Part shown: positions 2,229 to 58,168 of the stretch, piece by piece | How the letters are laid out: each line of letters begins with the position of its first letter | How positions within the stretch are numbered: the stretch's first letter is position 1 | Source: an uncultured Desulfohalobiaceae bacterium | GTDB taxonomy: Bacteria > Desulfobacterota > Desulfovibrionia > Desulfovibrionales > Desulfothermaceae | Assembly: GCA_964619345.1 (NCBI GenBank) | Contig: CAZUER010000002.1 | Span: 15,011 to 79,010 of the forward strand | Direction: 5' to 3' | Length of the DNA: 64,000 bases | Program-made: the position numbers and the translations under genes | Notes under the pieces: model-generated | Told to the model about the DNA's origin: nothing | Database searches by the model: none | The model's input: the letters and a program-made list of their open reading frames with translations, nothing else

Positions 2229-2462
2229 GTGTCCTCCTTGTGGATGGTACGTGCTGAAGGGAGGGGCATAATATGAACTTTGACATGTGTCAAATGTGAC
2301 AAATACCTGTTTTATTATTAGATTAAAATACAAGTTGTTTCCTCTCAACAGGTGGAAATTTAAGCATACATATCAACCTAAATTATTAGTATATATGTAA
2401 TGTTAAGTAGCTTCAAGATCATACTATCCATGTCAGACTGAATGGGTCGGGAATAGGCAAGC

Positions 2463-2491
2463 TTGACATATCCATGACTGGTCAATAATAT
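2463..2491 (+). promoter_or_regulatory. sigma70-like promoter upstream of the oxyanion-uptake operon
   Basis: TTGACA (2463-2468), a 17-nt spacer, then TAATAT (2486-2491). It lies about 150 nt upstream of the 2639 start. Confidence 0.45.
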
Positions 2492-2638
2492 TGTAATTTT
2501 CTTAATCTACTTTTCCCGCTGAAGCTCCATCTGTGACAGTATTTCCCTACGATTTACTCTGTTTTATGTGGGGTAGCAGATTGAGTTGGTGTTGGAAATC
2601 CCGTTGATGATGAAAATGAAAAACCAAAGGAGGTCCTT

Positions 2639-3514: not shown

Positions 3515-3540
3515 ACCTCATTTTCAAAAGGAGGAATGTT

Positions 3541-4515
3541 ATGCATACGAGAGTATCATCGATTTTTGCTCTGTGTCTGGGTGGATTGCTTGTGCTTTGC
3601 TCAGGGCAGGCCCTGGCCAAGGAGAAGCTGGTCATCTTCCATGCCGGCAGCCTGGCTGTACCCATGGAAAAAATGGAGAAGGAGTTTGAACAAAACCATC
3701 CCCAAATCGATGTTCAGAGGGAGGTCGGTGGAAGCACCAAGATGGCCCGGATGATCTCCGAGGTGGGAAAGCCGGCGGATATCATGGCCTCAGCCGACTA
3801 TAAGGTTATCGACAACAACCTTATCCCTGAGCATGCTACCTGGAACATCCGTTTTGCCAGCAATGAGCTGGTTTTGACCTATACAGATCAAAGCCGCTAT
3901 GCAGACGAAATAGATTCCAAGAATTGGTATGAGATATTGCAGCGCAAGGATGTCGAATGGGGACATTCCGACCCCAATTTAGATCCCTGCGGCTATCGGG
4001 CTTTGATGGTCCTGCAGCTGACTGAGAAATTCTACGGCATTGATGGACTGTATGAAGATCTCTTGGCCAATCGGCCCAAAAAGAACATCCGCCCCAAGTC
4101 CGTAGAGCTGGTCAATCTCCTCAAGTCAGGTCACATGGATTATGCATGGGAATATCTATCTGTGGCTGTGCAGCACGATTTGCAATACATAACCCTGGAC
4201 GAGCATATCAATCTGGGCAACTACAAATATGATCCCTTCTACAAGCAGGCCAATGTGGAAGTTACGGGTAAGGAGCCGGGAACAACGATTACCAAACAGG
4301 GCAAGTCCATCACCTACGGGGTGACTATGACCGATGATGCAGCCCATCCGGAAGCTGCCGTGGCTTTTTTGCAATATATGCTCAATGACCAGGGCGGCTT
4401 GCAAATATTAAAGGAAATGGGGCAACCGCCTTTTGTACCGGCCAGGATTCCTGATCAGGGCATGCTTGAGGCCCTGCCTGAAGAACTCAAAGACCTGGTT
4501 GTGGTCAAGAAATAA
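3541..4515 (+). CDS. wtpA: WtpA-type tungstate/molybdate ABC transporter substrate-binding protein
   Basis: SD AAGGAGG and a signal peptide. [43 protein letters not shown] and YGVTM closely follow archaeal WtpA. Confidence 0.85.
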
Positions 4516-4521
4516 AATGAA

Positions 4522-4552
4522 GGCGAGTGCAACACGAGGTGTTGCACTCGCC
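4522..4552 (+). repeat. family-A-type hairpin (variant) directly after the wtpA stop
   Basis: GGCGAGTGCAACAC-GAG-GTGTTGCACTCGCC forms a 14-bp stem starting 7 nt after the stop codon. It is followed by TGAGGTCGG, which resembles the TCAGAGGTCAG tract of the other copies. Confidence 0.6.
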
Positions 4553-4622
4553 TGAGGTCGGCTTTGCCTTCGGCAAATCTGACATATTTTTTGCCCCCAA
4601 GCGAGCAAAAAAGGGAAAAGTT

Positions 4623-4694
4623 GCCGGATTGATCACGATGAAACGTGTAGCGGGGATGCTGGAATACCCAAAAGGGCGACTGCCAGTCGCCCTT
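4623..4694 (+). repeat. family-B dispersed repeat (about 72 nt), copy 1
   Basis: Its reverse complement matches 34814-34886 at roughly 85% identity by eye. It contains the hairpin AAGGGCGACTG-C-CAGTCGCCCTT. Confidence 0.7.
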
Positions 4695-4795
4695 ACGAAT
4701 TGTTCGATACCCACTATGTAAAAATCAATACCGTCACTTTGATTGCAAAATTAAATCGGATTGTTGCATCAAATTCTGGGAGTAGGACATAAAAT

Positions 4796-5596
4796 ATGCA
4801 TTCCATCTCTCGGGGATGGTTTTCCCCTCTCTTGTTCTTTTTGAGCCTTCCCTTTCTCCTGCTCATCACCGCCCCCCTGGGCCAGTTGCTGACTTCCTCA
4901 GGGATCGAAGACCTGTTGCAGACTATCAGGGATCCCCAGGTACTGAAGGCCATTGGCCGAAGCCTGGGAAGCTCGCTGACCGCGGCTCTCCTGTGTCTAT
5001 TCCTGGGCACACCTCTGAGCTATCTTCTGGCCAGGCGGCTGTTTCCAGGCCGGCGCCTGGTGGAAGGTCTGGTGGACCTGCCCATCATGATTCCTCATCC
5101 GGTGATTGGAATTGCCATTTTGAGCCTGGCCGGACGGTATCATCCCTTCGGCCGTTTTCTCAGCGAGATTGGAATTCAAATAATGGGTTCATATGTTGGG
5201 ATAATCACTGTACTTACTTTTGTCGGTCTCCCCTTTTATGTGAACACGGTCAAGAGTGGGTTTGAAGCCATCCCAGTCAGGTTGGAAAAGGCTTCCAGGA
5301 GCCTGGGCGCGGGCATGGCCTCTACTTTTGTCCGGATCACCCTGCCCCTAGCCTGGCGGAGCATGGTTTTGGGCATGGTCATGTGCACGGCCAGGGCCAT
5401 CAGTGAGTTCGGAGCCATAGCCATTGTGGCCTATCACCCCATGACCGCCCCGGTTCTCATCTACGAACGTTTCACCGCCTATGGCCTGCAGTACTCGCAA
5501 CCGGTGGCAGTCTGGCTCATTATCATCTCCTTTTTCCTGTTTGTCCTCATGCGCCTTTTTTCCAGGTCCAAGGATACCGTATATGCTGGAAATTGA
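4796..5596 (+). CDS. wtpB: ABC transporter permease (WtpB/ModB-like)
   Basis: Multi-TM protein with a permease EAA-like loop (LEKASRSLGAGMASTFVRITLPL). It follows wtpA and overlaps the ATPase gene. Confidence 0.85.
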   Translation: MHSISRGWFSPLLFFLSLPFLLLITAPLGQLLTSSGIEDLLQTIRDPQVLKAIGRSLGSSLTAALLCLFLGTPLSYLLARRLFPGRRLVEGLVDLPIMIPHPVIGIAILSLAGRYHPFGRFLSEIGIQIMGSYVGIITVLTFVGLPFYVNTVKSGFEAIPVRLEKASRSLGAGMASTFVRITLPLAWRSMVLGMVMCTARAISEFGAIAIVAYHPMTAPVLIYERFTAYGLQYSQPVAVWLIIISFFLFVLMRLFSRSKDTVYAGN

Positions 5597-6644
5597 TTCG
5601 GTCTCCGTATTTTTGCCAGGCTTTTCACTGCAAGACATCTCATTTTCAGTCCAGCCTTCAGACTTTTTTGCCCTCCTGGGTCCCACTGGCTCCGGAAAAT
5701 CCATCCTTCTGGAAGCCACTATGGGGCTTTTGCCAGTAACCAAAGGGACAATCAGGGTTTCAGGGCAGGACATTTCCAGATACCCACCTGAATCACGAAA
5801 GCTGGGTCTGGTGTATCAGGACCATGCCCTGTTTCCGCACCTAAGCGTTCAAGAAAACCTTCTCTACGGGGTCAAATATCATCATATTCCAAGCCCTGTC
5901 CGGGACTCCCGTTTTGATTTGCTTGTGGACCGGCTGAAGCTCAAAGACCTTCTGCACCGCAGTCCGACCACCTTAAGCGGCGGGGAAAAGCAACGCACCG
6001 CACTGGCCAGATCCCTCATGCTCAATCCCCGGGCCCTCCTTTTGGACGAACCACTTTCCGCCCTGGATCAAATGTTCCGCGACGACGCCAGACGTCTGCT
6101 GAAAACTCTGCATCAGGAGCTGGGCATCCCTTTTATCCTGGTCTCGCACAGCTTTTCCGAAGTCCTTTTTCTGGCCAACAAGGGGGCGATCATCAAACAA
6201 GGCCAAATGCAACAATTAGGAAATATAGAAGATCTTTTTGAACGCCCACAGTCGTCATTTGTGGCCTCTTTCGTGGGCATGAGCAATGTCTTTCCCTGCC
6301 AGGTATCCAAGCAAATTGCCAAGGTCAATGGATTCGTATTTCACACCAGGCCCAGTGCGAAGGCAGAGCATACCCATCTGGCTGTCAGGCCTGAAGAGAT
6401 ACGGCTGGCCGCTTTGGAAACAACAGCTTATGAAAATAGTCTGAGCGGACGGATTACCCAGCTTGACTGCCAGGGTTTCTATTACCGGGTGGAGATCATG
6501 GTCCACAACACGGTATTTCAGGCCTTCTGGACCAGGCATACGGTGGAAGAGGAGAGGATTCACACTGGGAAGGAGGTGAAAATAGCCTTTCCAGCCTCAG
6601 TGGTGCATACGTTTGCCGAGCCACAGCCAGACTCGTATGAATAA
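5583..6644 (+). CDS. wtpC: ABC transporter ATP-binding protein (WtpC/ModC-like) with a C-terminal TOBE-like region
   Basis: I place the start at ATG 5583 (MLEIDSV...), overlapping the permease stop. Walker A GPTGSGKS, signature LSGGEKQR and Walker B LLLDEP are present. Confidence 0.85.
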   Translation: MLEIDSVSVFLPGFSLQDISFSVQPSDFFALLGPTGSGKSILLEATMGLLPVTKGTIRVSGQDISRYPPESRKLGLVYQDHALFPHLSVQENLLYGVKYHHIPSPVRDSRFDLLVDRLKLKDLLHRSPTTLSGGEKQRTALARSLMLNPRALLLDEPLSALDQMFRDDARRLLKTLHQELGIPFILVSHSFSEVLFLANKGAIIKQGQMQQLGNIEDLFERPQSSFVASFVGMSNVFPCQVSKQIAKVNGFVFHTRPSAKAEHTHLAVRPEEIRLAALETTAYENSLSGRITQLDCQGFYYRVEIMVHNTVFQAFWTRHTVEEERIHTGKEVKIAFPASVVHTFAEPQPDSYE

Positions 6645-6742
6645 CACATAGCAGGTGGCCAATACCGAATTGCCGGCGGGGGAGGCTCAGATCAAGCTCA
6701 GCAATTTCGGCCTGTTCCTGAGCTGCAGCATATATAGTTGCC

Positions 6743-7126
6743 TTACTCGACATCATGCTGATGACCGCCTTCCAGGGCATCTTTGATAACAGATGCAAAG
6801 ACTTCGTCACATTCAGAGACAACCAGAGTATTCACTCTCCTGAAGCGCTTCATCAGATCTTCTGCTTCCGGTGTCAGACGTGATCCGGTACTTCCCTTGA
6901 TGAGCAAGGGCATACCTAAACGACGTTCTGTGGCTGTAATTCTGGCCCACAAGGCCTTGTAGCTCATGTTCAGCTCCTTAGCAGCAGCCATGAGTGATCC
7001 TAAGCGCTGTACCGCGTCCAGAATACGATACCGTCCAGATCCGAACACGACCTCACCGTGTGCATCTTCTATCCAAACCTTCGAGCGTACCGTAAATGGT
7101 CCTGGGTTGTTTTTTTGCATGTTCAT
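6743..7126 (-). CDS. ModE N-terminal-domain-like winged-helix regulator (no TOBE/molybdate-binding domain)
   Basis: FGSGRYRILDAVQRLGSLMAAAKELNMSYKALWARI...RLTPEAEDLM follows the ModE N-terminal DNA-binding domain. The protein is only 127 aa, so the C-terminal oxyanion-sensing half is absent. Confidence 0.7.
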   Translation of the reverse strand: MNMQKNNPGPFTVRSKVWIEDAHGEVVFGSGRYRILDAVQRLGSLMAAAKELNMSYKALWARITATERRLGMPLLIKGSTGSRLTPEAEDLMKRFRRVNTLVVSECDEVFASVIKDALEGGHQHDVE

Positions 7127-7522
7127 ATATCATCCTTGACATAAGTATTGGAACAAAGTATTTCATTTGCAACCAGCTGGTTAGACACTTTGGCAGGCTC
7201 GGATCAACGAAGCTGTTCCGCCTGTAGTGGGCAGATTGTATGTCATTTTTGACATAACTAAGTGTGCACACCCTATGTTCTGTCCGTTCTGAATACAAAA
7301 CGCTGGATGATCTTTAGGGCAATTTCCTGGTGCACACATGTATTGTGCCTATGGGCTCGGGCTTGTCAAGCTAAAGGCTGGAGAAAATCTGTTTGGGCAT
7401 TGTGCTGTAGGTTATCTCCGGGGTCCAGATGAGCTCGAACACTTTTGAGAAGGAAGGGTAAGGGACAGAATTGGTTTGAGTCTTTGGCAAGGTATTGCAA
7501 TCAGGTGCAAAAGGAGGAAGGT

Positions 7523-9604
7523 ATGCGCAGCACAAGAGTGGCAATGGTGATAGGGTGCCTGGTGATTTCGCTCTGCCCGGGATGGGTGCTGGCTCAGCCT
7601 GCATCTGAACCAGCTTTTCGTCTGGGCGAGGTGGTGGTGACCGGGGAGAGGCCAGGAGTGAAAGACATTGCCATAAGCACGGAGATGACCAGTCAGGAGA
7701 TCGAGGCCACCGGTAGCAAGACTTTGGCTGAGGCTTTACGGTTTGCTCCCGGCATCACCGTAACCAGGGGGGCCAAAAATGAGCCGGAAATCTCCATCCA
7801 CGGTTTTGGGACCGAGAAGTCCTTATTCCTTATAGATGGCATTCCCTATTACGAGACGTACTATGGCAAGTTAAACCTGGATCAAATTCCTTCAGAGATC
7901 ATCTCCAAGATCGAGATCACCAAAAACGCTCCTTCAGTCCTCTACGGAGCCAATACCCAGATTGCGGTTATCAATGTGGTCACCAAGCAGGGCACAGAAG
8001 AACCCAGTTTCAACTTCACCCAGGAAGTAGGGGAAAACGATACGTATCGCACTATCTTGTCTCATGGAAATCAGATCGGTTTGGTCAACTACTGGCTGAG
8101 CTACAGCCGGCGGGAAACCGACGGATGGAGGATGTCCGATGATTACGACCCGGTACTGGCTCAGCCGGCCCGTCCCTTTATGGGCGATCCCCTGGTCACT
8201 GAAGACGGGGGCTTCAGGAACAACGCGGACCTGGAGCAGGACTCATTGTGGGGCAGGATCGGGGTCATCCCCAGCCAAGATTCAGAGTACTTTATCAGCG
8301 CCTACATGATCCAGGCCGAGAAAGGCATGCCCTTCAACACCGAAGAATACAGAGTCTTCACCACCCGCGGCGATGATGCCGGATTCTCCAATCTGGCCCG
8401 CTTTGAAAACTACGATGACTGGGGTATTGATTTCAGCGGCAAGCAAAAGTTCCTTCCCTGGATGACCTTGCGGGGCAAGCTCTTTTATCATGATCACACC
8501 GACGACTATGTTTCATACACTGACCCGGATCTGAACGACAAGATCGCCACCAGCACTTTTGAAGACAGCTATTATGGAGGATCGCTCTTTGCAGACATTG
8601 AAGCCCTTGACTGGCATATCGGACATTTTGCCGTCCATTATAAAATAGACACCCACGAGGATCGGGCAGGAAAGAATCTGCCTTTCAACGTGTTTAGGTC
8701 CTCCACTGGCTCGGTGGCCACCGAGCATGAATTCTTTGCCGATTTTGGCCTGACGGCGGTTGTCGGTGCAAGTTATGACTGGTTCGAGGTTACCGACGCC
8801 GAAGAGACTTTTTTTGACGACGATGACCTCTTTGCCGGTCAAAGGGAATTGGAGGACGCGGATCCAGATGCTGAGTTCAACCCCATGGCTGGTTTGAACT
8901 GGGAACTGCCGGATACCACCAGGCTGTACGGTTCAGTAGCTAAAAAGACCAGATTTCCGACCTTGAACCAGCTGTACTCAGGACGTTCAGGCAATCCTGA
9001 CCTGACCTCAGAGCAGAGCATCAACTATACTCTTGGAGTGCGGCGCTCTTTTTCCGATCTCGTTCATTTGCGGGTGGAAGGCTTTCACCACGACATCTCA
9101 GACTGGATCTCCAGGGATTACTATGAAGATGATTTTACCGGAGAAGCCGTCTACATCAATGTTGAAGACGTGGACATGTATGGATTCGAATTGGGTGTTG
9201 AGTTGACTCCCGTGCAGAACATGAGTGTGAAGCTGGACTATACGTACAACGATGCAGAAAATACCAGCCCCAAGGCTGTGACCGATAAGGTGGCCGGAGT
9301 TCCGGAAAACAAGTATGTCCTGTCTCTATCGGCCCTTATCCCCATGATCGAGACTCAGCTCGATGTGCAAGGGATCTATGTAGATAAGATATACGAGGAT
9401 CTGCCCACAACTGAAGATCCGGATCGGGAAATGACCCATGCCGGCAGTTACTTCACTGTGAATGCCCGCCTCTCCAAGGAAATAGGCAAGCACTTTGCAG
9501 CCTATATCGAATGCGAAAATCTGTTTGACGAAGATTATGAATCGGAAATCGGCTTTCCCGGACCGGGAAGAAACGCTTTACTGGGCCTGAAAGCCAGCTT
9601 CTAA
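7523..9604 (+). CDS. TonB-dependent outer-membrane receptor
   Basis: I place the start at ATG 7523 (AAGGAGGAAG upstream). This gives the signal peptide MRSTRVAMVIGCLVISLCPGWVLA. Plug motifs are EVVVTGER, LAEALRFAPGITV, ISIHGFG, FLIDGIPYYE and KIEITKNAPSVLYGAN. The C-terminus is ...LLGLKASF. Confidence 0.9.
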   Translation: MRSTRVAMVIGCLVISLCPGWVLAQPASEPAFRLGEVVVTGERPGVKDIAISTEMTSQEIEATGSKTLAEALRFAPGITVTRGAKNEPEISIHGFGTEKSLFLIDGIPYYETYYGKLNLDQIPSEIISKIEITKNAPSVLYGANTQIAVINVVTKQGTEEPSFNFTQEVGENDTYRTILSHGNQIGLVNYWLSYSRRETDGWRMSDDYDPVLAQPARPFMGDPLVTEDGGFRNNADLEQDSLWGRIGVIPSQDSEYFISAYMIQAEKGMPFNTEEYRVFTTRGDDAGFSNLARFENYDDWGIDFSGKQKFLPWMTLRGKLFYHDHTDDYVSYTDPDLNDKIATSTFEDSYYGGSLFADIEALDWHIGHFAVHYKIDTHEDRAGKNLPFNVFRSSTGSVATEHEFFADFGLTAVVGASYDWFEVTDAEETFFDDDDLFAGQRELEDADPDAEFNPMAGLNWELPDTTRLYGSVAKKTRFPTLNQLYSGRSGNPDLTSEQSINYTLGVRRSFSDLVHLRVEGFHHDISDWISRDYYEDDFTGEAVYINVEDVDMYGFELGVELTPVQNMSVKLDYTYNDAENTSPKAVTDKVAGVPENKYVLSLSALIPMIETQLDVQGIYVDKIYEDLPTTEDPDREMTHAGSYFTVNARLSKEIGKHFAAYIECENLFDEDYESEIGFPGPGRNALLGLKASF

Positions 9605-24162: not shown

Positions 24163-25425
24163 ATGGACAAAGGAAGCACCTACGAAGTCAAAGACATGGG
24201 GCTGACCGCCCAGGGAAAGAATAATTTGGAATTGGCTGAGCTGCACATGGGAGCTCTCTTGGAAGTACGGGAGCGTTTTGCCCAGGAAAAGCCCCTGCAG
24301 GGGGTTCGGGTGGGCTTGGCCCTGCACGTAACCAAAGAAACCGGGATTCTGGTCCGCACTCTGCAAGCCGGCGGTGCAGATGTGGCCATCACTGGGTGCA
24401 ACCCCTTGTCCACCCAGGATGATGTGGCCGCGGCCCTGGCTGACGAAGGAGTCAAGGTTTGGGCCTATAAAGGTGAAACCACCGAAGATTACTACCGGTA
24501 TATCGAGAACGTCATCGCTTTCAAACCTCAGATTACCATAGATGATGGATGCGATCTGGTTTCGGAGATCCACAAAAAGCATGCCCATCTCATCCCGGAC
24601 ATCATCTGCGGTTGCGAAGAGACGACCACAGGCATTATCCGGCTCAAGGCCATGGAAAAAGACAATGCCTTGAAGTATCCCATGATTGCCGTGAACGACA
24701 ACAAGACCAAGCATTTGGTGGACAACTATTACGGCACCGGGCAATCGACCATCGACGGCATCACCCGGGCCACCAACCTGCTTTGGGCTGGAAAGACGGT
24801 GGTAGTCAACGGCTATGGCAGCTGCGGCCGGGGCGTGGCCTTAAAAGCCGAAGGCATGGGCTCCAATGTGGTCATTACCGAAGTGGATAACTTCCGGGCT
24901 CTGCAGGCCGCTTATGACGGCTTTCGGATTCTGCCCATGAACGAAGCCGCACGTATCGGGGATGTCTTTTGCTCTGTGACCGGGAACAAGCACGTGATCA
25001 GCTTTGAGCACATGAAGCTGATGAAAAACGGGGCCATTATGGCCAACTCCGGTCATTTCGACAATGAAATCGAGCTGTCAACTCTGTCCGAGAAGGCCGA
25101 ATCCAGGCGCAACGTGCGGCCGTTTATGGAAGAGTATGTCCTGGACGGCAAAAAGCTCTTTGTTTTGGGGGAAGGGCGCTTGGTGAACCTGGCTGCGGCC
25201 GAGGGCCATCCCAGTGAAGTCATGTCTACTTCTTTCTGCGGCCAGGCTCTGTCCTGCGAGTTCGGAGTGAAAAACAAAGGCCGGATGGAAGCCAAAGTCC
25301 TGCAACTGCCTCCCGAGATTGATGATCAGATCGCCGGGTTGCAGCTCAAGGCCATGGGCATCAAGATCGACAGCCTCACTGCTGAACAAAACGATTATCT
25401 CAATTCCTGGGAAGAAGGTACGTAA
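24163..25425 (+). CDS. ahcY: adenosylhomocysteinase (short, archaeal/anaerobe type)
   Basis: GLALHVTKETGILVRTL, CNPLSTQDDVAAAL, DDGCDL, EETTTGI, NDNKTKHLVDNYYGTGQS, GYGSCGRG and GHFDNEI are all conserved SAHH blocks. Confidence 0.95.
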   Translation: MDKGSTYEVKDMGLTAQGKNNLELAELHMGALLEVRERFAQEKPLQGVRVGLALHVTKETGILVRTLQAGGADVAITGCNPLSTQDDVAAALADEGVKVWAYKGETTEDYYRYIENVIAFKPQITIDDGCDLVSEIHKKHAHLIPDIICGCEETTTGIIRLKAMEKDNALKYPMIAVNDNKTKHLVDNYYGTGQSTIDGITRATNLLWAGKTVVVNGYGSCGRGVALKAEGMGSNVVITEVDNFRALQAAYDGFRILPMNEAARIGDVFCSVTGNKHVISFEHMKLMKNGAIMANSGHFDNEIELSTLSEKAESRRNVRPFMEEYVLDGKKLFVLGEGRLVNLAAAEGHPSEVMSTSFCGQALSCEFGVKNKGRMEAKVLQLPPEIDDQIAGLQLKAMGIKIDSLTAEQNDYLNSWEEGT

Positions 25426-25458: not shown

Positions 25459-25766
25459 TGGGCCAGGCCAAGCCTGGTAGGAGGGGATGAGTAAGACTCT
25501 GAAACTTCTTTAGGAACCCTGCGGTAACCAATCCGCCCGGGTAAGCGGCCAGCGCCCGGAACCGAGTGTTGCGCGGCCTGGAGTAATCCATGCCGTGAAG
25601 CGTCCACAGGGAATCAATAAGGGGGAGTGATTTCGCCTTTATTGGCAAAGGCATAGCGTGAAGAGCCGGATGCGTTATGTTGGCGCCAACATAATATGCG
25701 GGAAATCCTGCACGTCCGGATCCGTGGAGGGGCGGGAGAGAGAAATCTCTCCCGTCTACCCGACCC
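25452..25766. ncRNA. candidate structured RNA of unknown class (about 300 nt, strand unresolved)
   Basis: The block is GC-rich and the only ORF (104 aa, minus strand) has implausible composition. It contains many nested helices. These are GGGAGAG-AGAAAT-CTCTCCC (25734-25753) and the perfect palindrome TTATGTTGGCGCCAACATAA (25675-25694). GCGGG-AAAT-CCTGC (25698-25711) is enclosed by GAGCCGGATG (25663-25672) pairing with CGTCCGGATC (25713-25722). The ends can also pair: GGTCAGGTGG at 25452-25461 with CTACCCGACC at 25756-25765. Confidence 0.35.
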
Positions 25767-26451: not shown

Positions 26452-29178
26452 ATGCCCTTTGAAACCGGATCCTTCCTGCCTTCCATTCGGACATTAAGCC
26501 AGATCATTGATCAATTGTCTGATTCCGCTTCCGAGGCAGCTTTTATCTCGATGGATGCAAGCGGCCCCCGGGCAATGAAGCGTTCAGATGTGGGTGAACG
26601 CACAAGCCAGGTCGCGGCCGGGCTGGTCGATATTGGGGTGGAACCTGGGGTCAGAATCGCTCTCTGCGGTTCCACCTCAGTTGACTGGATGATGGTCGCG
26701 TTGGCCATTCTCCGGGCCGGCGGAACGGTCGTCCCTATTGACTCCCTGATGGAAGAAGACACCATCGTCCACATTTTCCAGGATTGTCGTCCTGAAGCTG
26801 TGTTTACTGATGAAGCCCATAAGCAGCTGATTGAAGGAAGCAATATTGCGGATAAGCCCAGGATCTTCCTCCTGGATACACCGGACAGCCCTGCCTATTG
26901 GCAAAACCTGGGCAAATCCGAACCGGATTCCTGGCCAGAGGTGCACCCTGGGCAGGAAGCGGTCCTCTTCTATACCTCAGGGACCACAGGACCACCGAAG
27001 GGGGTTCCCCTGACTCACGCCAACCTGGCATTTCAGATCGACACCATTGTAAAGGCCAACTTGATTTCGGCAGGCGAACACATTGTGCTGCCTTTACCCT
27101 TGCATCATGTTTATCCTTTTGTTTTTGGCCTGCTCACCCCACTGGCCATGAAGGTGGCAGTGGTTATTCCTCAAGCTCTGACCGGCCCTCAGCTCTTGCG
27201 GGCCATAAGGGAGGGACGGGCCAGTGCCATCATCGGGGTGCCCAGATTGTATCGGGCCTTGTACGAAGGCCTGCATGCCCGCATCCGTTCCAGAAGCGCA
27301 GCTATAGAGCGGCTTTTGGGCCGGGTTGAGAGATTATGCACGATCCTGCAGGGCAAGTTCCAGGTTTCTCTGGGGCCATGGCTTCTGTGGCCCGTTCACC
27401 GCCAGTTCGGCAGCCATCTTCGCTTAATGGCCTCGGGCGGGGCCACATTGGAAGGCGGGCTGGCCCAGCGGCTGGAAGGAGTGGGCTGGAAGGTGATGGT
27501 TGGATACGGTCTCACTGAGACCGCGCCATTGCTGACTATGCGAATGCCTGGACAAGGTCCGCCTGAGAGCGTGGGGCGTCCTATCCCCGGAGTCGAGCTG
27601 CAGATCGATCCCCAGGCCGGCCCCAAAGGAGAGAGCCTGGATAAGCAGCCAGGCAGCCAGGTTTCAGGGGAAATTCTGGCCCGGGGGCCGGGTGTCTTTC
27701 AGGGATATCTCAACTTGCCGCAAGAGACAGAGAAGGTTTTAACCCAGGACGGCTGGTTCCGGACAGGAGACCTGGGCCACTTCGACAGCGATGGCTACCT
27801 GCATGTCACCGGACGTGTATCCACCCGTATTGTGACAGAGAGTGGTGAAAATATTCAGCCGGATCACCTGGAGAGAGTCATTGCCGGACACCCCTTGATT
27901 GCTGAGGCCGGTGTGCTCTCATGGCATGGCCGGCTGGCGGCCTTGGTTGTTCCGGATACGGAGCAGTTCAAGGAATCAGATCTGCACGATATGCAGCAGG
28001 CCATGAAGCGAGCGGCAGGGGAGGCTTCCTCCAGCCTTCCATCATATATGCAGGTGAACGAAGTCAGGGTCAGCCCAGCACCCCTGTCTCGGACAAGGCT
28101 GGGAAAGATTCGGCGTCATCTTTTACAGCAGCGTTATGAGGAAGTGGGCAGGGAGCAATCGGGATCGGATCGGCGTCCGGTATCTTACCAGAGCATGTCG
28201 GATCAAGATAAGTCTTTGCTCGAAAACCAAACCGCCCACCGGGTCTGGAAATGGCTCTGCGAACGCTTCCCGGACAGAGGGCTCAGCCCTGATTCCCATC
28301 TGGAGAGGGACTTAGGGGTAGACTCCATGGAGTGGCTCAATTTAAGCCTGGAAATCCATGAGCAAACCGGTGCAGAGATCAGCCAAGAAGCAATTGATCA
28401 GATCCAAAGTGTGCGCGATCTCCTTCTGGCGGTGGTGAACGCGGCTCAAAGCGCCCAGGCCCTCGTCGATCCGGTTGAAAAACCTTATCAAGCCCTGAGC
28501 CGGGATCAGCAAGCCTGGTTGACTCCTCGAAACTCTGTACAACGAGCGGTTGCCTGGGCCGTCTATTGGTTGGGGTCTCTGGGAGTCCGTCTCTTTTACC
28601 GGGTTCGAGTTGAGGGCAAGCACCATGTCTCCTGTCGCGGTGCTTGCCTGCTGACTCCGAATCATACCAGCTACCTGGACCCCATTGTCTTGGCCCATGT
28701 TCTGGGTCTGAAAAATCTCAGGCATACCTATTGGGCAGGGTTGAGTACAGTTGCCTTTAACAATGCGTTCAAGCGGTTTATGTGTCGCCTGGGCCAGGCG
28801 GTCCCGATCTCTGCAGAGCACGGTGCTGTCAGCGGACTGGCATTTGCATCAGCCATTCTGCAAAAGAATCAGCGTCTGGTATGGTTTCCGGAAGGGCAGA
28901 GATCTGGGGATGGAGAGCTTCAAGCGTTAAGGCCCGGGTTGGGTGCGGTCTTAAAACGTATTCCGGTGCCGGTCATTCCGGTCTGGATCGAGGGAACCTA
29001 TGCAGCCTGGCCGGTATCCAGACGTGTGCCCCGGCCCGGAAGTATTCGCGTGACCTTCGGTCAGCCTGTGGAAGTCAATGAGCTTAGGGAATCCGGGACT
29101 TCTGAGAGGATTGAGTGGAGCATCATAGAGGGTCTGCACCAGCGGCTGGCTGAGCTGGGTAAGACCCAAAGCACGTAG
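26452..29178 (+). CDS. tri-domain protein: acyl-activating (AMP-forming) enzyme + carrier (PP-binding) domain + PlsC-type acyltransferase
   Basis: AMP-binding motifs FYTSGTTGPPKGV, GYGLTETAP, FRTGDLG and the terminal Lys region GKIRR. Carrier motif LGVDSMEWLNL. Acyltransferase HxxxxD as NHTSYLDP, plus FPEGQRS. Confidence 0.85.
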   Translation: MPFETGSFLPSIRTLSQIIDQLSDSASEAAFISMDASGPRAMKRSDVGERTSQVAAGLVDIGVEPGVRIALCGSTSVDWMMVALAILRAGGTVVPIDSLMEEDTIVHIFQDCRPEAVFTDEAHKQLIEGSNIADKPRIFLLDTPDSPAYWQNLGKSEPDSWPEVHPGQEAVLFYTSGTTGPPKGVPLTHANLAFQIDTIVKANLISAGEHIVLPLPLHHVYPFVFGLLTPLAMKVAVVIPQALTGPQLLRAIREGRASAIIGVPRLYRALYEGLHARIRSRSAAIERLLGRVERLCTILQGKFQVSLGPWLLWPVHRQFGSHLRLMASGGATLEGGLAQRLEGVGWKVMVGYGLTETAPLLTMRMPGQGPPESVGRPIPGVELQIDPQAGPKGESLDKQPGSQVSGEILARGPGVFQGYLNLPQETEKVLTQDGWFRTGDLGHFDSDGYLHVTGRVSTRIVTESGENIQPDHLERVIAGHPLIAEAGVLSWHGRLAALVVPDTEQFKESDLHDMQQAMKRAAGEASSSLPSYMQVNEVRVSPAPLSRTRLGKIRRHLLQQRYEEVGREQSGSDRRPVSYQSMSDQDKSLLENQTAHRVWKWLCERFPDRGLSPDSHLERDLGVDSMEWLNLSLEIHEQTGAEISQEAIDQIQSVRDLLLAVVNAAQSAQALVDPVEKPYQALSRDQQAWLTPRNSVQRAVAWAVYWLGSLGVRLFYRVRVEGKHHVSCRGACLLTPNHTSYLDPIVLAHVLGLKNLRHTYWAGLSTVAFNNAFKRFMCRLGQAVPISAEHGAVSGLAFASAILQKNQRLVWFPEGQRSGDGELQALRPGLGAVLKRIPVPVIPVWIEGTYAAWPVSRRVPRPGSIRVTFGQPVEVNELRESGTSERIEWSIIEGLHQRLAELGKTQST

Positions 29179-29338: not shown

Positions 29339-29911
29339 ATGAAAAGAACGTTCATTATTGCAGCACTGGTAGTGGCTTTTATCCTTGCCGGCAGTGCAGT
29401 CCTGGCTCAGCAACAGGGCTACGGCCAGGAATACGGCCCTCAAGGCCAGGGTTGGTTTTGCCCTTGGTGCGGTCAGCAACACGGACAGGGCATGGGCCCA
29501 GGGATGATGCAACGCGGCCAGAGCATGCCTTATGGCTGGCAGGGCCAAGGTATGGGGCCCGGAATGATGCCTGGTTGGCAAGGGCAAGGCATGAGGTCTG
29601 GTATGCAGCATGGCTACCGGGGCCAGGGTATGATGCACGGTGGTCGAGGCATGGGTCCCGGCATGAGAGGAGATCAATGGGGCCGCGGGCAGTATGGTCC
29701 TTCCAGCCAACCGCAGCAGATGGAACCCTTGTCCAAGAATGAAGCCCGCAACCTGGCCGAGGACTATGTGGCCCGGAACCCGAATCTGAAGATCGGTGAT
29801 CTCAGTGAAATGGATGAGGTGTATGAAGCCAGAGTGGAGACCAGGGACGGCTCTCTGGTGGAAAGGCTGCTCATCGACAAGCAAACCGGATGGATGAAAA
29901 AAGCCTACTGA
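29339..29911 (+). CDS. secreted Gly/Met/Gln-rich repeat protein with a C-terminal PepSY-like domain
   Basis: SD AAGGAGG and a signal peptide. The roughly 100-aa low-complexity core contains reiterated QGQGMGPGMM units and a CPWC pair. The C-terminus (ARNLAEDYVARNPNLKIGDL...YEARVETRDGSLVERLLIDKQTGW) follows the PepSY pattern. Confidence 0.7.
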   Translation: MKRTFIIAALVVAFILAGSAVLAQQQGYGQEYGPQGQGWFCPWCGQQHGQGMGPGMMQRGQSMPYGWQGQGMGPGMMPGWQGQGMRSGMQHGYRGQGMMHGGRGMGPGMRGDQWGRGQYGPSSQPQQMEPLSKNEARNLAEDYVARNPNLKIGDLSEMDEVYEARVETRDGSLVERLLIDKQTGWMKKAY

Positions 29912-30090: not shown

Positions 30091-30447
30091 TCAGCTTTTT
30101 TGAGACTGCAGATACTTCTTTAGGGCCACTGCATTGTTATGTTCTGTGTCTTTTGCTGCAAAGATCAGGGTGACCGGTCCTTTTTGGAGCTGGTCTATGA
30201 CAGCGTTCACAGCCTCGGGGTGTGTCTGGAGTTCCTGGAAGTACCTGGTCTGAAACTCAGACCACTTATCCGGATCGTGGCCGAACCATTTGCGCAGCTC
30301 TTTGCTCGGAGCGAGCTCCTTGAGCCAGAGATCAATTTGGGCCTGCTGCTTGGACACGCCCCGGGGCCACATGCCATCCACCAGAATCCGGGTTCCGTCC
30401 TCGTCGTTGGGCTGCTCGTAGACCCTTTTGAGCATAATGTTGTGCAT
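30091..30447 (-). CDS. DUF488 (YeaO-like) protein
   Basis: KRVYEQPNDEDGTRILVDGMWPRGVSK...LWLKELAPSKELRKWFGHDP...FAAKDTEHNNAVALKKYL aligns along its length with E. coli YeaO as I remember it. Confidence 0.85.
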   Translation of the reverse strand: MHNIMLKRVYEQPNDEDGTRILVDGMWPRGVSKQQAQIDLWLKELAPSKELRKWFGHDPDKWSEFQTRYFQELQTHPEAVNAVIDQLQKGPVTLIFAAKDTEHNNAVALKKYLQSQKS

Positions 30448-30611: not shown

Positions 30612-30650
30612 CCCCTCCCTCCCGCCTGGAAGACAGGCGGCAAGGAGGGG
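30612..30650 (-). terminator. GC-rich hairpin downstream of the thioredoxin-fold gene (family E)
   Basis: CCCCTCCCTCCCGCCTG-GAAGA-CAGGCGGCAAGGAGGGG. There is no clean U-tract. The related hairpin at 31339-31367 shares the core CTCCxGCCTGGAAG...CAGG. Confidence 0.4.
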
Positions 30651-30705: not shown

Positions 30706-31278
30706 CTAGAGATTCCAGTATGGAAAACCACGTCTAGCCCATGCTGAATGTGGGTAATCAAACAGAAGAAGACGGTAGACTTCTTTAAGAGCTTTGGGAT
30801 CCTCGTTCTTCTTGAAGTGGGATACCCCACGCAAAAAGACCGCTTCTGGAGCGCTTCCGCTGGCAGAGGACTCCAGGAGCAGGGAATCCAAAATCTCTAT
30901 GGCCTGGTCCAGCAGATTGCTGTGAAAAGCCTTTTTGGCTTGTCCAAGCTGAATGAAGGGAACAAGTTCATCCGGAGGAAGGAAGCCTATGACATCATGG
31001 TCCGGGTTCCCGTTTGTATCAAGTATGAATAATCGTGGCGTCCATTTGACCTTGAACTGTTCGGCATAGGGCTGCTGGTCGTGGCCGATACGCAATGGAA
31101 TGACGTTGTCTTGAACATAAGCGGCAACCTTGTCGTTAGGATACGTGACCGCATCCATCTGCTGGCAACCGATTCATCCTGGATTGTAGAAGTCCAATAA
31201 GATTGGCATATCGTTATTTTTTTTGGCTGTGGCCAGGGCATTATCCCATTGCTGTAACCATTCGATGGATTTGGACAT
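30706..31278 (-). CDS. thioredoxin-fold protein with predicted selenocysteine (UxxC) and a helical C-terminal half
   Basis: The ORF track starts this gene at 31158. In the same frame, ATG 31278 (GGGAGGA upstream) gives MSKSIEWLQQWDNALATAKKNNDMPILLDFYNPG-[TGA 31176-31174]-IGCQQMDAVTYPND.... The TGA sits at the first-Cys position of the redox CxxC motif. A hairpin follows it (next feature). Confidence 0.7.
31139..31156 (-). other. candidate bacterial SECIS hairpin
   Basis: On the mRNA, GGAUGC-GGUCAC-GUAUCC starts 17 nt 3' of the UGA. It has a 6-bp stem and G/U residues in the apical loop. Confidence 0.45.
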
Positions 31279-31338
31279 AATATCCTCCCTCAGTTTGAAT
31301 CATAACATATCAGTAAAAAACCATTTCTTCTCTGATTA

Positions 31339-31367
31339 CCCTCCTGCCTGGAAGTCAGACAGGAGGG
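31339..31367 (-). terminator. GC-rich hairpin downstream of the dodecin gene (family E)
   Basis: CCCTCCTG-CCTGGAAGTCAGA-CAGGAGGG lies about 28 nt past the stop codon. Confidence 0.4.
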
Positions 31368-31394: not shown

Positions 31395-31598
31395 TTAGCG
31401 GTCAACCAGAAATGAGATCTTGCAGTTGACCCTGTAGGCCGAGACTTTGTTGTTTTCCACATCTGTTTGAAACTCCTTGACATAAACAGACTTAATGTTG
31501 TCCACCGTCTTCGCGGCTTCGGCCACTGCAACATTGACTGCATCTTCCCAGCTTTTCTCGGACTGGGCCAGAATTTCGATGACTTTGACTACAGGCAT
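31395..31598 (-). CDS. dodecin-family flavin-binding protein
   Basis: I place the start at ATG 31598 (AAGGAGG upstream). MPVVKVIEILAQSEKSWEDAVNVAVAEAAKTVDNIKSVYVKEF...AYRVNCKISF follows the dodecin pattern. The protein is 67 aa. Confidence 0.85.
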   Translation of the reverse strand: MPVVKVIEILAQSEKSWEDAVNVAVAEAAKTVDNIKSVYVKEFQTDVENNKVSAYRVNCKISFLVDR

Positions 31599-31736
31599 AA
31601 CGACCTCCTTGGTTTCCCAAATAGACAATCCTGATCATGCACTTTTGAAAAGCGACTTTTCGCTTGGAAAGAATCTCTACGTGTCAATCGTCGAGATTCA
31701 ATCTTGATACTCAGGATATGTATAATCTGGGATTGG

Positions 31737-31904: not shown

Positions 31905-31963
31905 ATGCGAGTGAACAATCTGTATTTGCAAAAGAACATAAAGCGACCTTTTGCAGTTCCGTC
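31905..31963 (+). repeat. composite of a family-A 5' fragment and the family-C element, copy 1
   Basis: ATGCGAGTGAACAATCTGTATTTGCA resembles the family-A head. It is followed by GAACATAAAGCGACCTTTTGCAGTTCCGTC (31934-31963), which matches 59634-59663 at 28 of 30 positions. Confidence 0.6.
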
Positions 31964-31988
31964 AATATCCGTGGGAGGAGGTGAGTGC

Positions 31989-32675
31989 ATGGTGGTATCA
32001 GCTGACTCAAGCTCAGTGCAGTATTTCGTTGACCGGAGTGATGCCGGCCGCAGATTGGCCCAATCAATAGCTCAAAGAGGCATCACGGGGGATCTGCTCA
32101 TTCTCGGATTGCCCCGGGGGGGCATACCGGTGGCTTATGAGGTCGCCCGGGAGCTGAAGGCCCCTCTTGACGTCTGGCTGGTTCGGAAGCTGGGGGTTCC
32201 AGGCCACGAGGAGCTGGCCATGGGCGCCTTGGCCAGCGGCGGAGCCAAAATCATGAATGAGGATGTCGTTCGCTCCATGGGGGTGCGGCCGGAAAGCATC
32301 GATTCGGTGGTGGCCAAGGAATATAAAGAGCTCAAACGCAGGGAACAGGAATACCGCGGCGATAGACCCCTGCCGGAGATCAAGGGCAGGGTGGTCATCG
32401 TAGTTGATGATGGACTGGCCACGGGGGCGAGCATGAGGGCTGCACTCAGGGATCTGGGATCCCAGGACCCGGCCCGGCTTATTGTGGCGGTGCCGGTCGG
32501 AGCTCCGGAGGTCTGCCGGGCCATGTCCAGGGAGGCCTCAGAGGTAATTTGCCTACTTCAGCCCAGATTCTTCAATGCCGTGGGCAAATGGTACCGGAAG
32601 TTCAACCAGACCACGGATCAGGAGGTCCGTGATCTGTTGAGCCATGCCCAGACCATGAACTTCGAACATACTTGA
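31989..32675 (+). CDS. phosphoribosyltransferase-family protein
   Basis: I place the start at ATG 31989 (GGAGGAGG upstream). The ORF-track N-terminus is translation of repeat sequence. Motifs are LILGLPRGGIPVAYEVA and the PRPP loop VVIVVDDGLATGASM. Confidence 0.8.
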   Translation: MVVSADSSSVQYFVDRSDAGRRLAQSIAQRGITGDLLILGLPRGGIPVAYEVARELKAPLDVWLVRKLGVPGHEELAMGALASGGAKIMNEDVVRSMGVRPESIDSVVAKEYKELKRREQEYRGDRPLPEIKGRVVIVVDDGLATGASMRAALRDLGSQDPARLIVAVPVGAPEVCRAMSREASEVICLLQPRFFNAVGKWYRKFNQTTDQEVRDLLSHAQTMNFEHT

Positions 32676-32860: not shown

Positions 32861-33232
32861 TTATTCCATAAGGGCCTGGATAGCGGCCTCGGACTTCTCC
32901 GGCGGCCGGCGTTCAGGGACAACTTTATGCGGTATCCGGTCTTCATTCCAGTCCTCGGATACGTACAAGCCGCAGAAGCAGCTCCCGAATTCCTGGATAT
33001 CCGGCTTGGCGTACACACAGGGGCAGAGGATGTCCTTGTCCAGGTCGTAAACGCCGGAAGCCAGCCGGCATGGGCAGGATGCGTATCCGTAGCGATCCAT
33101 GTTGATGAGCAGGCTTTCCAGAAGGTCCCGGACCATCTGCTGATCCTTGTTGAAATGAAAACCCTTCTTGGCCACCAGCTTTTGAAGCTTTTCATAATAG
33201 GCGTCAATACGTTCAGGACTTATGGTGTTCAT
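32861..33232 (-). CDS. ferredoxin:thioredoxin reductase catalytic-subunit-like protein
   Basis: I place the start at ATG 33232 (GGAGGAC upstream). It has the CPC...CPC...C...C cluster (ASCPCRL, ILCPCVY, FGSCFCGLY) characteristic of FTR catalytic domains. Confidence 0.8.
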   Translation of the reverse strand: MNTISPERIDAYYEKLQKLVAKKGFHFNKDQQMVRDLLESLLINMDRYGYASCPCRLASGVYDLDKDILCPCVYAKPDIQEFGSCFCGLYVSEDWNEDRIPHKVVPERRPPEKSEAAIQALME

Positions 33233-33288
33233 ACGTCTTTGTCCTCCATACAAAAGTTATACATATGTGAACAGAAGGAGAAAACATT

Positions 33289-55852: not shown

Positions 55853-56902
55853 ATGCGTGAAGCTTTGTGGTATTTTCAACATGAGAACGATATGGTTCGC
55901 TGTTTTCTATGCGCCCATACCTGCAACATAACCCCTGGGGAGCGCGGGAAATGCAATGTGCGGGAAAACAGGAACGGTGTCCTGTGGAGCTTGGTTTACG
56001 GCCGGCCGGTGGCCCGGCATGTGGACTTTATTGAGAAGAAACCGCTGTATCATGTCTATCCGGGCAGCTTGAGCTATTCGTATGGTACAGCAGGATGCAA
56101 CTTCCATTGTACCTTTTGCCAAAATGCGGATATTGCCCACCCCAGGAAAATCCTGGGAGCTATTTCAGTTCAGGACGTTCCTCCGCAGGACATTGTGTCC
56201 CAGGCACTGGTGCAAGGGTGTTCGAGCATAGCCGCCACCTACACTGAGCCTACGGTGTTCATGGAATACGCACTGGATGTGGCCAGGTTGGGACGCGAGC
56301 GACAATTGGCCCAGGTCTTTGTGACCAACGGATTCATGACTCCTAAGTCCCTGAAAGACCTCACCCCGGTCCTGGATGCAGCCAATGTGGATCTGAAGTC
56401 CTTTCGGGACGATTTCTATATCCAGCAGTGTGAGGCTCGGTTAAAACCGGTCCTTCAGACCTTGCGTTCCCTGAAAAAGGCGGGGGTATGGCTGGAGGTA
56501 ACCACTTTGGTCATTCCGGGGCTGAACGATTCCTGGGATGAGCTCACAGAAATGGCCGACTTCATAGCTTTTTCCCTAGGGCCGGAAACTCCCTGGCACC
56601 TCTCGGCCTTTCATCCCAGCTACAAACTGAAGGATCGTCCCCGAACACCTATTGAGACCCTGTTTAAAGCCCGTGAAATCGGGGTTGCAGCTGGATTGCA
56701 CTACGTTTATTTGGGAAATGTACTGGAGCCTGAATACAGACACACGTATTGCCATCACTGCGGAAGAAAGCTGATTGATCGGTCGCAAATGGTGGGTGAA
56801 CCAGTCGGCTTGCAGAATGGAGGATGCTCTGAGTGCGGCCATAGACTGCCAGGCCTGGGGATTCAGGTCAGCCAGGAGCTGTCCGGTGTCCATCGTTCAT
56901 GA
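55853..56902 (+). CDS. amrS: AmmeMemoRadiSam-system-type radical SAM enzyme
   Basis: The N-terminal Cys-rich VRCFLCAHTCNITPGERGKCNVREN is followed by the radical SAM cluster motif CNFHCTFCQN. The length and pattern are those of AmrS / PFL-activase-like proteins. Confidence 0.8.
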   Translation: MREALWYFQHENDMVRCFLCAHTCNITPGERGKCNVRENRNGVLWSLVYGRPVARHVDFIEKKPLYHVYPGSLSYSYGTAGCNFHCTFCQNADIAHPRKILGAISVQDVPPQDIVSQALVQGCSSIAATYTEPTVFMEYALDVARLGRERQLAQVFVTNGFMTPKSLKDLTPVLDAANVDLKSFRDDFYIQQCEARLKPVLQTLRSLKKAGVWLEVTTLVIPGLNDSWDELTEMADFIAFSLGPETPWHLSAFHPSYKLKDRPRTPIETLFKAREIGVAAGLHYVYLGNVLEPEYRHTYCHHCGRKLIDRSQMVGEPVGLQNGGCSECGHRLPGLGIQVSQELSGVHRS

Positions 56903-58168
56903 TTGGTAAATTTGAGAGGAATTTTTTTGAGGCTTTTTCTGCAGAATTCACTTTCCGGCAGCAAGGACATCTTCCATCCCCGGAGTGGTTCGGAGGTCAA
57001 GCTTTTCACCTGCGGACCTTCGGTCTATAATCTGCCGCATATCGGCAATTATCGGACCTATCTGTATGAAGATGTCCTGCAGCGGATGTTAGAGGCCATG
57101 GGCTATGGGGTCAGACGCATGATCAACTTCACTGATGTGGAGGACAAGGCTGTGGCTGAGGCCCAAAGCCGGGGGCTGGCCGGTCTGTCTGAATTGACTG
57201 TCCCCAACGAGGAGCGGTTCTACAGGGATGCCGAGTTGCTGGGAATCAAGCTGCCGCAGGAGATCCCCAGGTCATCTACAAGCGTGGATCAGGCGGTCTA
57301 CCTCATTTCCAGGCTTTTGGAGCAGGGCCAGGCCTACTGGCACAAGGGAGACGTTTTTTTTGACCCCCTTACCTTTGATGGCTTCGGGCGTCTCTACGGG
57401 CTGGATATGAGCCGCTGGCCGAAGAAAAAGGTCCGCTTCCGCAAGGACACCTATCCGGGGCAGCGATGGAATCTCGGCGACTTTATCCTCTGGCACGGGG
57501 GGCGATCGGATGACCCCTTTGTCTGGAAGACTGAGATCGGTTACGGCCGGCCGGCCTGGAACATTCAAGATCCGGCCATGATCAGCAAACATTTGGGCTA
57601 TGAGCTGGATATCTGCTGCGGCGGGGTGGATAACCTTTATCGGCATCATGACTACAACATGGCCATCATGGAGTCTGTATCCAAGAGTGTTTTGGCCCCT
57701 TACTGGCTGCATGGAGAGCATCTCCTGGTCGACGGGGTAAAGATGTCCAAGAGCAAGGGCAACATCGTCTATCCTGATGATCTCATCCAGAAGGGGTGGT
57801 CACCCGGTTTTCTGCGTTTTTTTCTCCTTTGGGTTCATTACCGCTCCGCGTTGAATCTTAAGGCAAGGAATGTCCAGCAGGCCTGGACCACATTCACCAG
57901 GTTGCAGAGCCTGGTGCAGGAATTTCGAGAAGGAGGTGCGGGCAGCAGCAAACAGGCCGAGCAGGCCCCTGCAGCCCACTGCCTGTCCAACCAGGCACTG
58001 GTATATCTGGCCGACGATCTGGACGTATCCTCAGCCATCCAATGTACGATCAAGATCCTGGAGCAGCTCCGAGCCTTGCAAAAAGACGGACGTCTCAGCT
58101 CAGAGGATCACAGGGCGGCCCTTGACGGCCTCAAAGAGCTGGATCAGGTCCTTGGATTCAATCTTTAA
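56903..58168 (+). CDS. cysteinyl-tRNA-synthetase-like class I ligase paralogue, C-terminally short
   Basis: CGPSVYNLPHIGN (HIGH-type), DICCGGVDNLYRHHDYN and KMSKSKGN (KMSKS) align with CysRS. No in-frame ATG precedes the HIGN motif. TTG 56903 directly follows the amrS TGA. Confidence 0.75.
   Translation: MVNLRGIFLRLFLQNSLSGSKDIFHPRSGSEVKLFTCGPSVYNLPHIGNYRTYLYEDVLQRMLEAMGYGVRRMINFTDVEDKAVAEAQSRGLAGLSELTVPNEERFYRDAELLGIKLPQEIPRSSTSVDQAVYLISRLLEQGQAYWHKGDVFFDPLTFDGFGRLYGLDMSRWPKKKVRFRKDTYPGQRWNLGDFILWHGGRSDDPFVWKTEIGYGRPAWNIQDPAMISKHLGYELDICCGGVDNLYRHHDYNMAIMESVSKSVLAPYWLHGEHLLVDGVKMSKSKGNIVYPDDLIQKGWSPGFLRFFLLWVHYRSALNLKARNVQQAWTTFTRLQSLVQEFREGGAGSSKQAEQAPAAHCLSNQALVYLADDLDVSSAIQCTIKILEQLRALQKDGRLSSEDHRAALDGLKELDQVLGFNL

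Follow-up and report, generated by a model that had tools for sequence, protein, structure and literature searches.

The stretch of DNA analysed here (64,000 nucleotides of contig CAZUER010000002.1 from an uncultured Desulfohalobiaceae bacterium; hereafter the window, in whose coordinates all positions are given) carries on its minus strand, at 30706–31278, a gene that is predicted to encode a selenoprotein. One reading frame extends from an ATG at 31278–31276 to a TAG at 30708–30706 and contains a single in-frame TGA (31176–31174). When this TGA is read as selenocysteine (Sec), the frame is a complete coding sequence of 190 codons with Sec at codon 35. The ATG is preceded by a Shine-Dalgarno-like GGGAGGA (31283–31289, minus strand) with 5 nt between GGAGG and the start codon, and an in-frame stop lies 7 codons further 5' of the ATG. 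The TGA opens a U-I-G-C redox motif (31165–31176), around which the peptide reads ...DFYNPG-U-IGCQQMDAVTYPNDK, and the Sec motif as a whole is NPG-U-IGC-QQMDAV. The encoded protein is composed of a thioredoxin-fold domain (approximately residues 1–110, 30949–31278), which includes a cis-proline-type motif W79-T80-P81 (31036–31044), and a C-terminal all-helical TPR-like domain (approximately residues 111–190, 30709–30948). A hairpin designated as the bacterial selenocysteine insertion sequence (bSECIS) is located at 31139–31156, within codons Met41–Pro47.

The open reading frame (ORF) listed by the gene-finding program (30706–31158) begins at Met41 of the 190-codon frame. The initial annotation of this locus proposed that the program had restarted at Met41 inside a 190-aa thioredoxin-fold selenoprotein of the UxxC type. 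The ATG at 31278, the Shine-Dalgarno sequence, the TGA, the hairpin at 31156–31139 and the translation on which the proposal was built were all found where it had placed them, and the proposal itself was borne out by the homologues, the conservation of the N-terminal region and the hairpin described below. It is very likely that the gene encodes one 190-residue cytoplasmic thioredoxin-fold oxidoreductase, with the UGA at 31176–31174 decoded as Sec, and that it is an orthologue of a previously predicted family.

Homologues were collected from metagenomes with a pattern that left the synonymous sites of the hairpin free and allowed TGA, TGC or TGT at the codon in question. At least 120 loci were retrieved, and the counts and fractions given below for Sec and Cys forms refer to distinct sequences after deduplication, among the matches listed. 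Both forms were found, in keeping with the initial annotation: TGA occupies the position of the window's Sec codon in at least 109 distinct homologues and TGY in at least 10, the latter including loci in Desulforhopalus and Geomonas genomes, and the ratio of Sec to Cys forms in this sample is approximately 10 to 1. These data bear on the possibility that the window gene is a decaying pseudogene in which a Cys codon (TGC or TGT) mutated to TGA in this lineage. The change from TGY to TGA needs one substitution, and a single sequence could not have excluded such decay; however, the same TGA is present in the at least 109 distinct sequences, which span approximately 40–95% protein identity, and purifying selection persists on both sides of it. 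The window copy is also intact, with a start codon, a Shine-Dalgarno sequence, a 7-bp hairpin without mismatches and a C-terminus of full length. A decaying pseudogene is extremely unlikely.

Database homologues of the window protein are mostly called at exactly 150 aa, which is the same truncation as that of the listed window ORF. In the DNA behind nine of these 150-aa proteins (13 loci), a TGA is located 18 nt before the called Met in all 13 cases, and the residues preceding it are conserved and in many records appear as a 33-aa ORF of their own. Over the 90 nt before the TGA, none of 106 sequences has an in-frame stop, while the corresponding numbers for the other two frames are 53 and 84. 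The entropy values at codon positions 1, 2 and 3 of this segment are 0.99, 0.80 and 1.65, respectively, indicating that the third position varies most. In 85 of the 106 homologues, the open frame upstream has its first Met 32–35 codons before the TGA, and the consensus of the region is.I.WETdm..AL.RAk.EnKpVLLDFFNPG-U. Shared N-terminal residues had been named in the initial annotation as a means of checking the extended frame, and approximately 33 residues are indeed conserved. The closest named relative of the window protein (71% identity) is from a Desulfohalobiaceae metagenome-assembled genome.

If the TGA were a genuine stop, the product would be a 150-aa protein starting at Met41, possibly together with a separate 34-residue peptide. 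Public pipelines annotate the locus in this way: all NCBI, ENA and Logan protein records found for close homologues show the 150-aa form, often with the 33-aa ORF beside it, apart from translations that place Trp at the Sec site. However, a start at Met41 would delete strand β1, the active-site motif and the beginning of helix α1 from a domain whose Pfam match begins at residue 6. Met41 also lacks its own ribosome-binding site and falls within both the hairpin and the invariant IGCQQMDAV motif. In 106 of 106 sequences the 33 upstream residues stay in frame with coding periodicity, and the homologues of the Cys form, among them six full-length database entries that carry C-I-G-C, are continuous proteins of 186–190 aa. 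Termination at this TGA is very unlikely.

TGA might instead encode an amino acid (Trp or Gly) if the organism used an alternative genetic code, as would be suggested by the W-I-G-C motif of four database homologues (P0022, P0025, P0027 and P0031). These records are artefacts that arise when genes on short metagenome contigs are called under genetic code 4: one of them (P0022) also translates its own stop as W, the signature of such calling. In the window, TGA terminates 9 of the 21 confidently identified genes, whose profile matches extend to the C-terminus of the profile, and the GC content is 52.8%; TGA is an ordinary stop codon in the host organism. True homologues alternate with Cys at the Sec position, and a pattern permitting W ([CW]IGCQQMD) gave no TGG codon among the matches listed (L001–L005). 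The probability of an alternative code is close to nil.

The hairpin GGAUGCG-GUCA-CGUAUCC begins 17 nt after the UGA and is composed of a 5' arm (31150–31156), a GUCA loop (31146–31149) and a 3' arm (31139–31145). An isolated 30-nt segment folds into a 7-bp stem with the GUCA loop at −10.8 kcal/mol, and this structure accounts for 83% of the ensemble. Relative to shuffled sequences its z-score is −3.05, and 2 of 200 shuffles fold equally well. A lone hairpin in a lone sequence is thus only modestly above chance, and it is the comparative evidence that lifts it beyond chance. The bSECIS model (Zhang & Gladyshev 2005), as summarised in a 2026 review (PMC13188914), has a loop of 3–9 nt on an upper stem of 4–16 bp, a G at the first or second position of the loop that is usually followed by G or U, a spacing of 16–37 nt between UGA and loop, and a minimum free energy of −7.5 kcal/mol or lower. 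The window hairpin agrees with each of these four features. It can be drawn with 7 bp and a 4-nt loop or with 6 bp and a 6-nt loop; its loop is G-U-C-A, with the G present in 109 of 109 and the U in 107 of 109 Sec forms; 24 nt (31173–31150) separate the UGA from the first loop base; and its energy is that given above. The energy threshold is reached by 96 of the 109 Sec forms versus 3 of the 10 Cys forms. The proposal that this hairpin is a bSECIS, made from the window sequence before any comparison, is supported: all four published criteria apply to it, and the pattern is kept in Sec forms and not in Cys forms.

Codon usage within the conserved peptide M-D-A-V-T-Y-P carries much of this distinction. 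The third base of codon 45, which pairs with C8, is G in 109 of 109 Sec forms, although the remainder of these genes uses ACG for only 27% of Thr codons; in the Cys forms this base is G in 3 of 10. GAU is used at the Asp codon in 94% of Sec forms (57% elsewhere in the same genes; 6 of 10 Cys forms), and UAU at the Tyr codon in 93% (55% elsewhere). For the latter codon, all five Tyr codons among the Cys forms are UAU and the other five forms have Phe. Strongly biased synonymous codons appear to keep the predicted hairpin in the Sec forms and not in the Cys forms. Across the 109 Sec forms the stem is paired in 96.5% of the alignment cells. In a subgroup with the peptide MDAVAYID (seven listed sequences: L051, L066, L114, L119, L122, L133 and L134), the register of the hairpin is shifted by 2 nt through the concerted changes GAU to GAC, ACG to GCG, UAU to UAC and CCN to AUC. 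The resulting structure, ACGC-GGUC-GCGU atop GAUG/CAUC, has a GGUC loop once more.

Covariation was seen between the two third-codon positions on either side of the loop G-U, one in the Ala GCN and one in the Val GUN codon (31150 and 31147; alignment columns 27 and 30). The combinations observed are A-U (52), G-U (27), G-C (13) and C-G (6), and the two bases could pair in 98 of 102 sequences compared with 80.8 expected, a value reached by none of 20,000 permutations. The mutual information of the two columns is 0.41 bits, while that of 20 control pairs of synonymous sites is at most 0.13 bits; third-position GC bias or drift was ruled out as the cause on this basis. The two positions do not form a canonical pair because only two nucleotides separate them. 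The covariation may reflect a SelB-bound conformation in which the G and U are flipped out, leaving the adjacent bases to stack or pair with each other; in the Escherichia coli SECIS loop, G23 and U24 are conserved SelB contacts (PMC8659212).

The window protein was compared with Pfam after replacing the stop codon with Cys. Four models of the thioredoxin clan passed their cut-offs: Thioredoxin_7 (PF13899, 42.7 bits against 27, residues 6–87), Thioredoxin_2 (PF13098, 41.9 bits against 27), DsbH (PF03190, 35.2 bits against 27) and Thioredoxin (PF00085, 29.9 bits against 23.5). All four matches span codon 35. In the C-terminal half, TPR_16 (20.7 bits against 32.7) and TPR_6 were both below their cut-offs. 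W79-T80-P81, which corresponds in position to the cis-Pro loop, does not vary across the family. By sequence, the best matches of solved structure come from the C-terminal thioredoxin-like domain of DsbD (6dnl, E = 1e-6), in whose CxxC motif the first Cys is aligned with the Sec of the window protein.

An AlphaFold2 model was built for P0029, the closest full-length Cys homologue (48% identical to the window protein), with a mean predicted local distance difference test score (pLDDT) of 91.8 and a predicted template modelling score (pTM) of 0.87. The model comprises a thioredoxin fold at residues 1 to approximately 95 followed by five helices (98–185), and its motif C31-I-G-C34 directly precedes and enters the helix 32–41. 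A Foldseek search matched the N-terminal domain to the γ domain of DsbD (DsbD-γ), DsbH and thioredoxins, whereas full-length matches were obtained with YbbN/CnoX alone (thioredoxin fold plus TPR; 3qou and 3qdn) at a template modelling (TM) score of 0.37. A signal peptide is not present in the window protein, because the in-frame stop 7 codons upstream of the ATG leaves no room for one. From these features we infer a cytoplasmic selenol/thiol oxidoreductase whose helical domain would serve in partner recognition.

A separate observation concerns a subfamily with the motif NPN-U-[LM]GCK[KQ]MD (L017, L018, L019, L038 and L104, and also L053, L064, L091 and L116). The N-termini of L017 and L018 resemble a signal peptide (MKKSSLLVALVVFCATALVAVSSQAQ in L017), which suggests that exported versions of the same selenoprotein exist in this subfamily.

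A mechanism can be outlined from the established process of bacterial Sec insertion and from the fold and motifs of the protein. The hairpin at 31156–31139, with its apical loop 24 nt from the UGA, would present the G-U of the loop and recruit the SelB-GTP-Sec-tRNASec complex when the UGA enters the ribosomal A site, and the complex would outcompete RF2 at this codon. In the folded protein, Sec35 would be placed at the N-terminus of helix α1, facing the invariant Trp-Thr-Pro loop, and act as the attacking nucleophile, after which Cys38 would resolve the mixed selenenylsulfide. The TPR-like helical C-terminal half probably binds a client or a reductant. Two bolder readings, that the loop has an architecture beyond the standard hairpin model and, separately, that the protein is a cytoplasmic CnoX-like selenium "chaperedoxin" with the TPR-like domain selecting clients, are together considered doubtful.

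Several points weigh against the assignment of the gene as a selenoprotein gene with a bSECIS. Six stem pairs show no compensatory double change in the 109 Sec forms. This can be explained by the conserved amino acids (M-D-A-V-T-Y-P), which fix each partner base, and the support for the stem consequently rests on the codon bias and the Sec/Cys contrast. RNAalifold favoured another weak helix (−3.1 kcal/mol) over the hairpin in the same alignment because the real stem earns no covariation bonus. The Sec/Cys contrast itself depends on 10 Cys forms only. In a scan of the whole window with Rfam at the gathering threshold, no match was obtained at the hairpin. The structural model is that of a 48%-identical Cys homologue and not of the window protein. 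The 64-kb window contains no selA, selB, selD or tRNA-Sec gene (it has no tRNA genes, and no sel gene is present among its 20 long ORFs), and no second selenoprotein gene is present in it to show independently that the host decodes Sec. This lack of Sec machinery within the 64 kb also speaks for termination at the TGA. Finally, the 2026 review places the family among predicted rather than "experimentally verified" selenoproteins (PMC13188914).

On either side of the selenoprotein gene lie genes for an Aas-like synthetase/acyltransferase (26452–29178, plus strand), a DUF488 protein (30091–30447, minus strand), a dodecin (31395–31628, minus strand), a phosphoribosyltransferase (31905–32675, plus strand) and a homologue of the catalytic subunit of ferredoxin:thioredoxin reductase (FTR) in a Cys form with CPC motifs (32861–33253, minus strand; FeThRed_B, 73.9 bits). 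The last is related to the NCBIfam model "FtrB family double-selenoprotein" at 50 bits (cut-off 160). It had been put forward as a possible redox partner of the selenoprotein. The FTR-like gene is real, but its role as a redox partner is not supported and was rejected, since it stands beside the selenoprotein gene elsewhere only in a close relative (L006).

Clustering of the flanking ORFs over 123 distinct loci revealed no conserved neighbour and yielded antisense artefacts and a cysteinyl-tRNA synthetase (CysRS)-like gene. This CysRS-like paralogue, the best real neighbour, is present at 6 of the 71 loci with sufficient flank (L014/L015, L016, L083, L108, L115 and L127). The adjacency could be a sign of some connection with a cysteine-ligating or low-molecular-weight-thiol pathway, and, if the "chaperedoxin" reading were true, the protein could be tied to the CysRS-like ligase in a few lineages. 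In the window, a CysRS-like paralogue (56903–58168, plus strand; 268.9 bits, below the cysS cut-off of 340) is abutted in frame by an AmmeMemoRadiSam radical-SAM gene (55853–56902, plus strand).

A GC-rich hairpin (30612–30650, minus strand; −36 kcal/mol, z = −3.8) is located approximately 56 nt 3' of the stop codon of the selenoprotein gene, and a sister hairpin (31339–31367, minus strand; −25.8 kcal/mol, z = −3.4) lies 3' of the upstream dodecin gene. Both are of one design (CCCCTCC...CTTCCAGGC.GGAGGG), of which only two copies exist in the 64 kb. A scan for the terminator consensus found nothing at these hairpins because neither has a U tract. The hairpin at 30612–30650 probably forms the 3' end of the transcript or acts as its terminator, and the selenoprotein gene, bracketed by two like hairpins, looks monocistronic.

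The window also encodes a tungstate ABC transporter, a 2-oxoacid:ferredoxin oxidoreductase, Etf, AmmeMemoRadiSam and TonB receptors, a gene content that suits an anaerobic deltaproteobacterium. The tungstate transporter genes (WtpA at 3541–4515, 452 bits; WtpC-like at 5481–6644) are located between two TonB-dependent receptors in the region 243–9604, an arrangement consistent with the use of tungsten enzymes by an anaerobe. Other window frames interrupted by TGA were considered as selenoprotein candidates and rejected as adjacent genes or non-coding frames. The only Rfam match in the whole window is to the group-II-D1D4-6 intron (25528–25667, plus strand; 54.3 bits, E = 1.6e-12), directly after an adenosylhomocysteinase gene (24163–25425), with the 225-position model accommodated within 140 nt. 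A 190-aa ORF at 29339–29911 (plus strand) has a signal-peptide-like N-terminus and Gly/Met/Gln-rich repeats (GQGMGPGMM...) and no Pfam match.

Like the fdhF-type SECIS of E. coli, the hairpin lies within the coding region shortly 3' of the UGA and exposes G-U in a small apical loop, and the window loop G-GUC-A resembles the GGUC loop of fdhF. It differs in that the upper stem of the family is shorter (6–7 bp), an equivalent of the bulged U17 is not evident, a conserved lower stem down to the UGA is lacking and no Rfam model matches it.

Among solved structures, DsbD-γ (6dnl, 2fwf and 1vrs) is the nearest relative of the window protein both by sequence and by fold (Foldseek E of approximately 1e-5, TM score 0.68 normalised to the target). 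DsbD-γ forms the periplasmic end of a membrane electron conduit built of three domains, whereas the window protein has no signal peptide, membrane domain or α domain, carries an additional helical C-terminal domain and contains Sec. Of the exported three-domain architecture, the window protein has a γ-like domain only, and its score with the NCBIfam DsbD model is 36 bits (cut-off 330). YbbN/CnoX (3qou and 3qdn), the sole solved structures aligned over the full length (approximately 195 columns, Foldseek E of approximately 3e-5), share the domain order, with an N-terminal thioredoxin fold followed by a helical TPR-like domain. The TM score given above is low, the identity is 12–16% and YbbN is approximately 100 residues longer; the likeness seen is in fold and domain order. 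The CnoX protein of E. coli is a holdase with an SxxC motif.

The NCBIfam models for thioredoxin-like selenoproteins (TsoB, VPGUxxT types 1 and 2, and Trx7/PDZ) stay below their curated cut-offs on the window protein, the best scores being 37.2 bits against a cut-off of 805, 19 against 350/275 and 11 against 300. No NCBIfam model reaches its cut-off on the window protein, and the truncated public records probably arise because none of these models captures the family.

The family in question is the "Thiol:disulfide interchange protein" family (PF13098, UxxC, WP_011366075.1), which the 2026 review describes as "predicted with high confidence" and, in its entry for the family, attributes to Kryukov & Gladyshev 2004 (EMBO Rep 5:538; PMC13188914). 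Zhang et al. 2006 (Genome Biol 7:R94) reported it in Geobacter metallireducens, G. uraniumreducens and Syntrophus aciditrophicus, and the sequences in supplement file 4 of that paper are 186–190 aa long and contain LLDFFNPG-U-IGC[QK]QMDAV, with the Sec motifs NPG-U-IGC-KQMDAV and NPN-U-IGC-KTMDAV. Over 183 of its 190 residues, the window protein shares 50% identity with the G. uraniumreducens member (E = 2e-65). Judged from sequence, its membership in this predicted selenoprotein family is established. The gene is a mis-annotated member of a family already predicted in 2004–2006 and not a discovery. The practical worth of the present analysis is in annotation, as the family is systematically mis-annotated approximately twenty years after its prediction. 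The comparative set of at least 109 Sec and at least 10 Cys forms provides a well-defined predicted SECIS embedded in an invariant peptide motif. Mildly new are the extent to which Sec forms outnumber Cys forms, the analysis of the SECIS codon by codon and the cross-loop covariation; otherwise no new biology is added. The name "thiol:disulfide interchange" implies a periplasmic role like that of DsbD, which is at odds with a window protein that has no signal peptide. In all other respects nothing of substance distinguishes the window protein from the published family, with which it shares the length, the two-part architecture, the position of Sec and the setting in anaerobic Deltaproteobacteria, and it represents a further orthologue from a different lineage.

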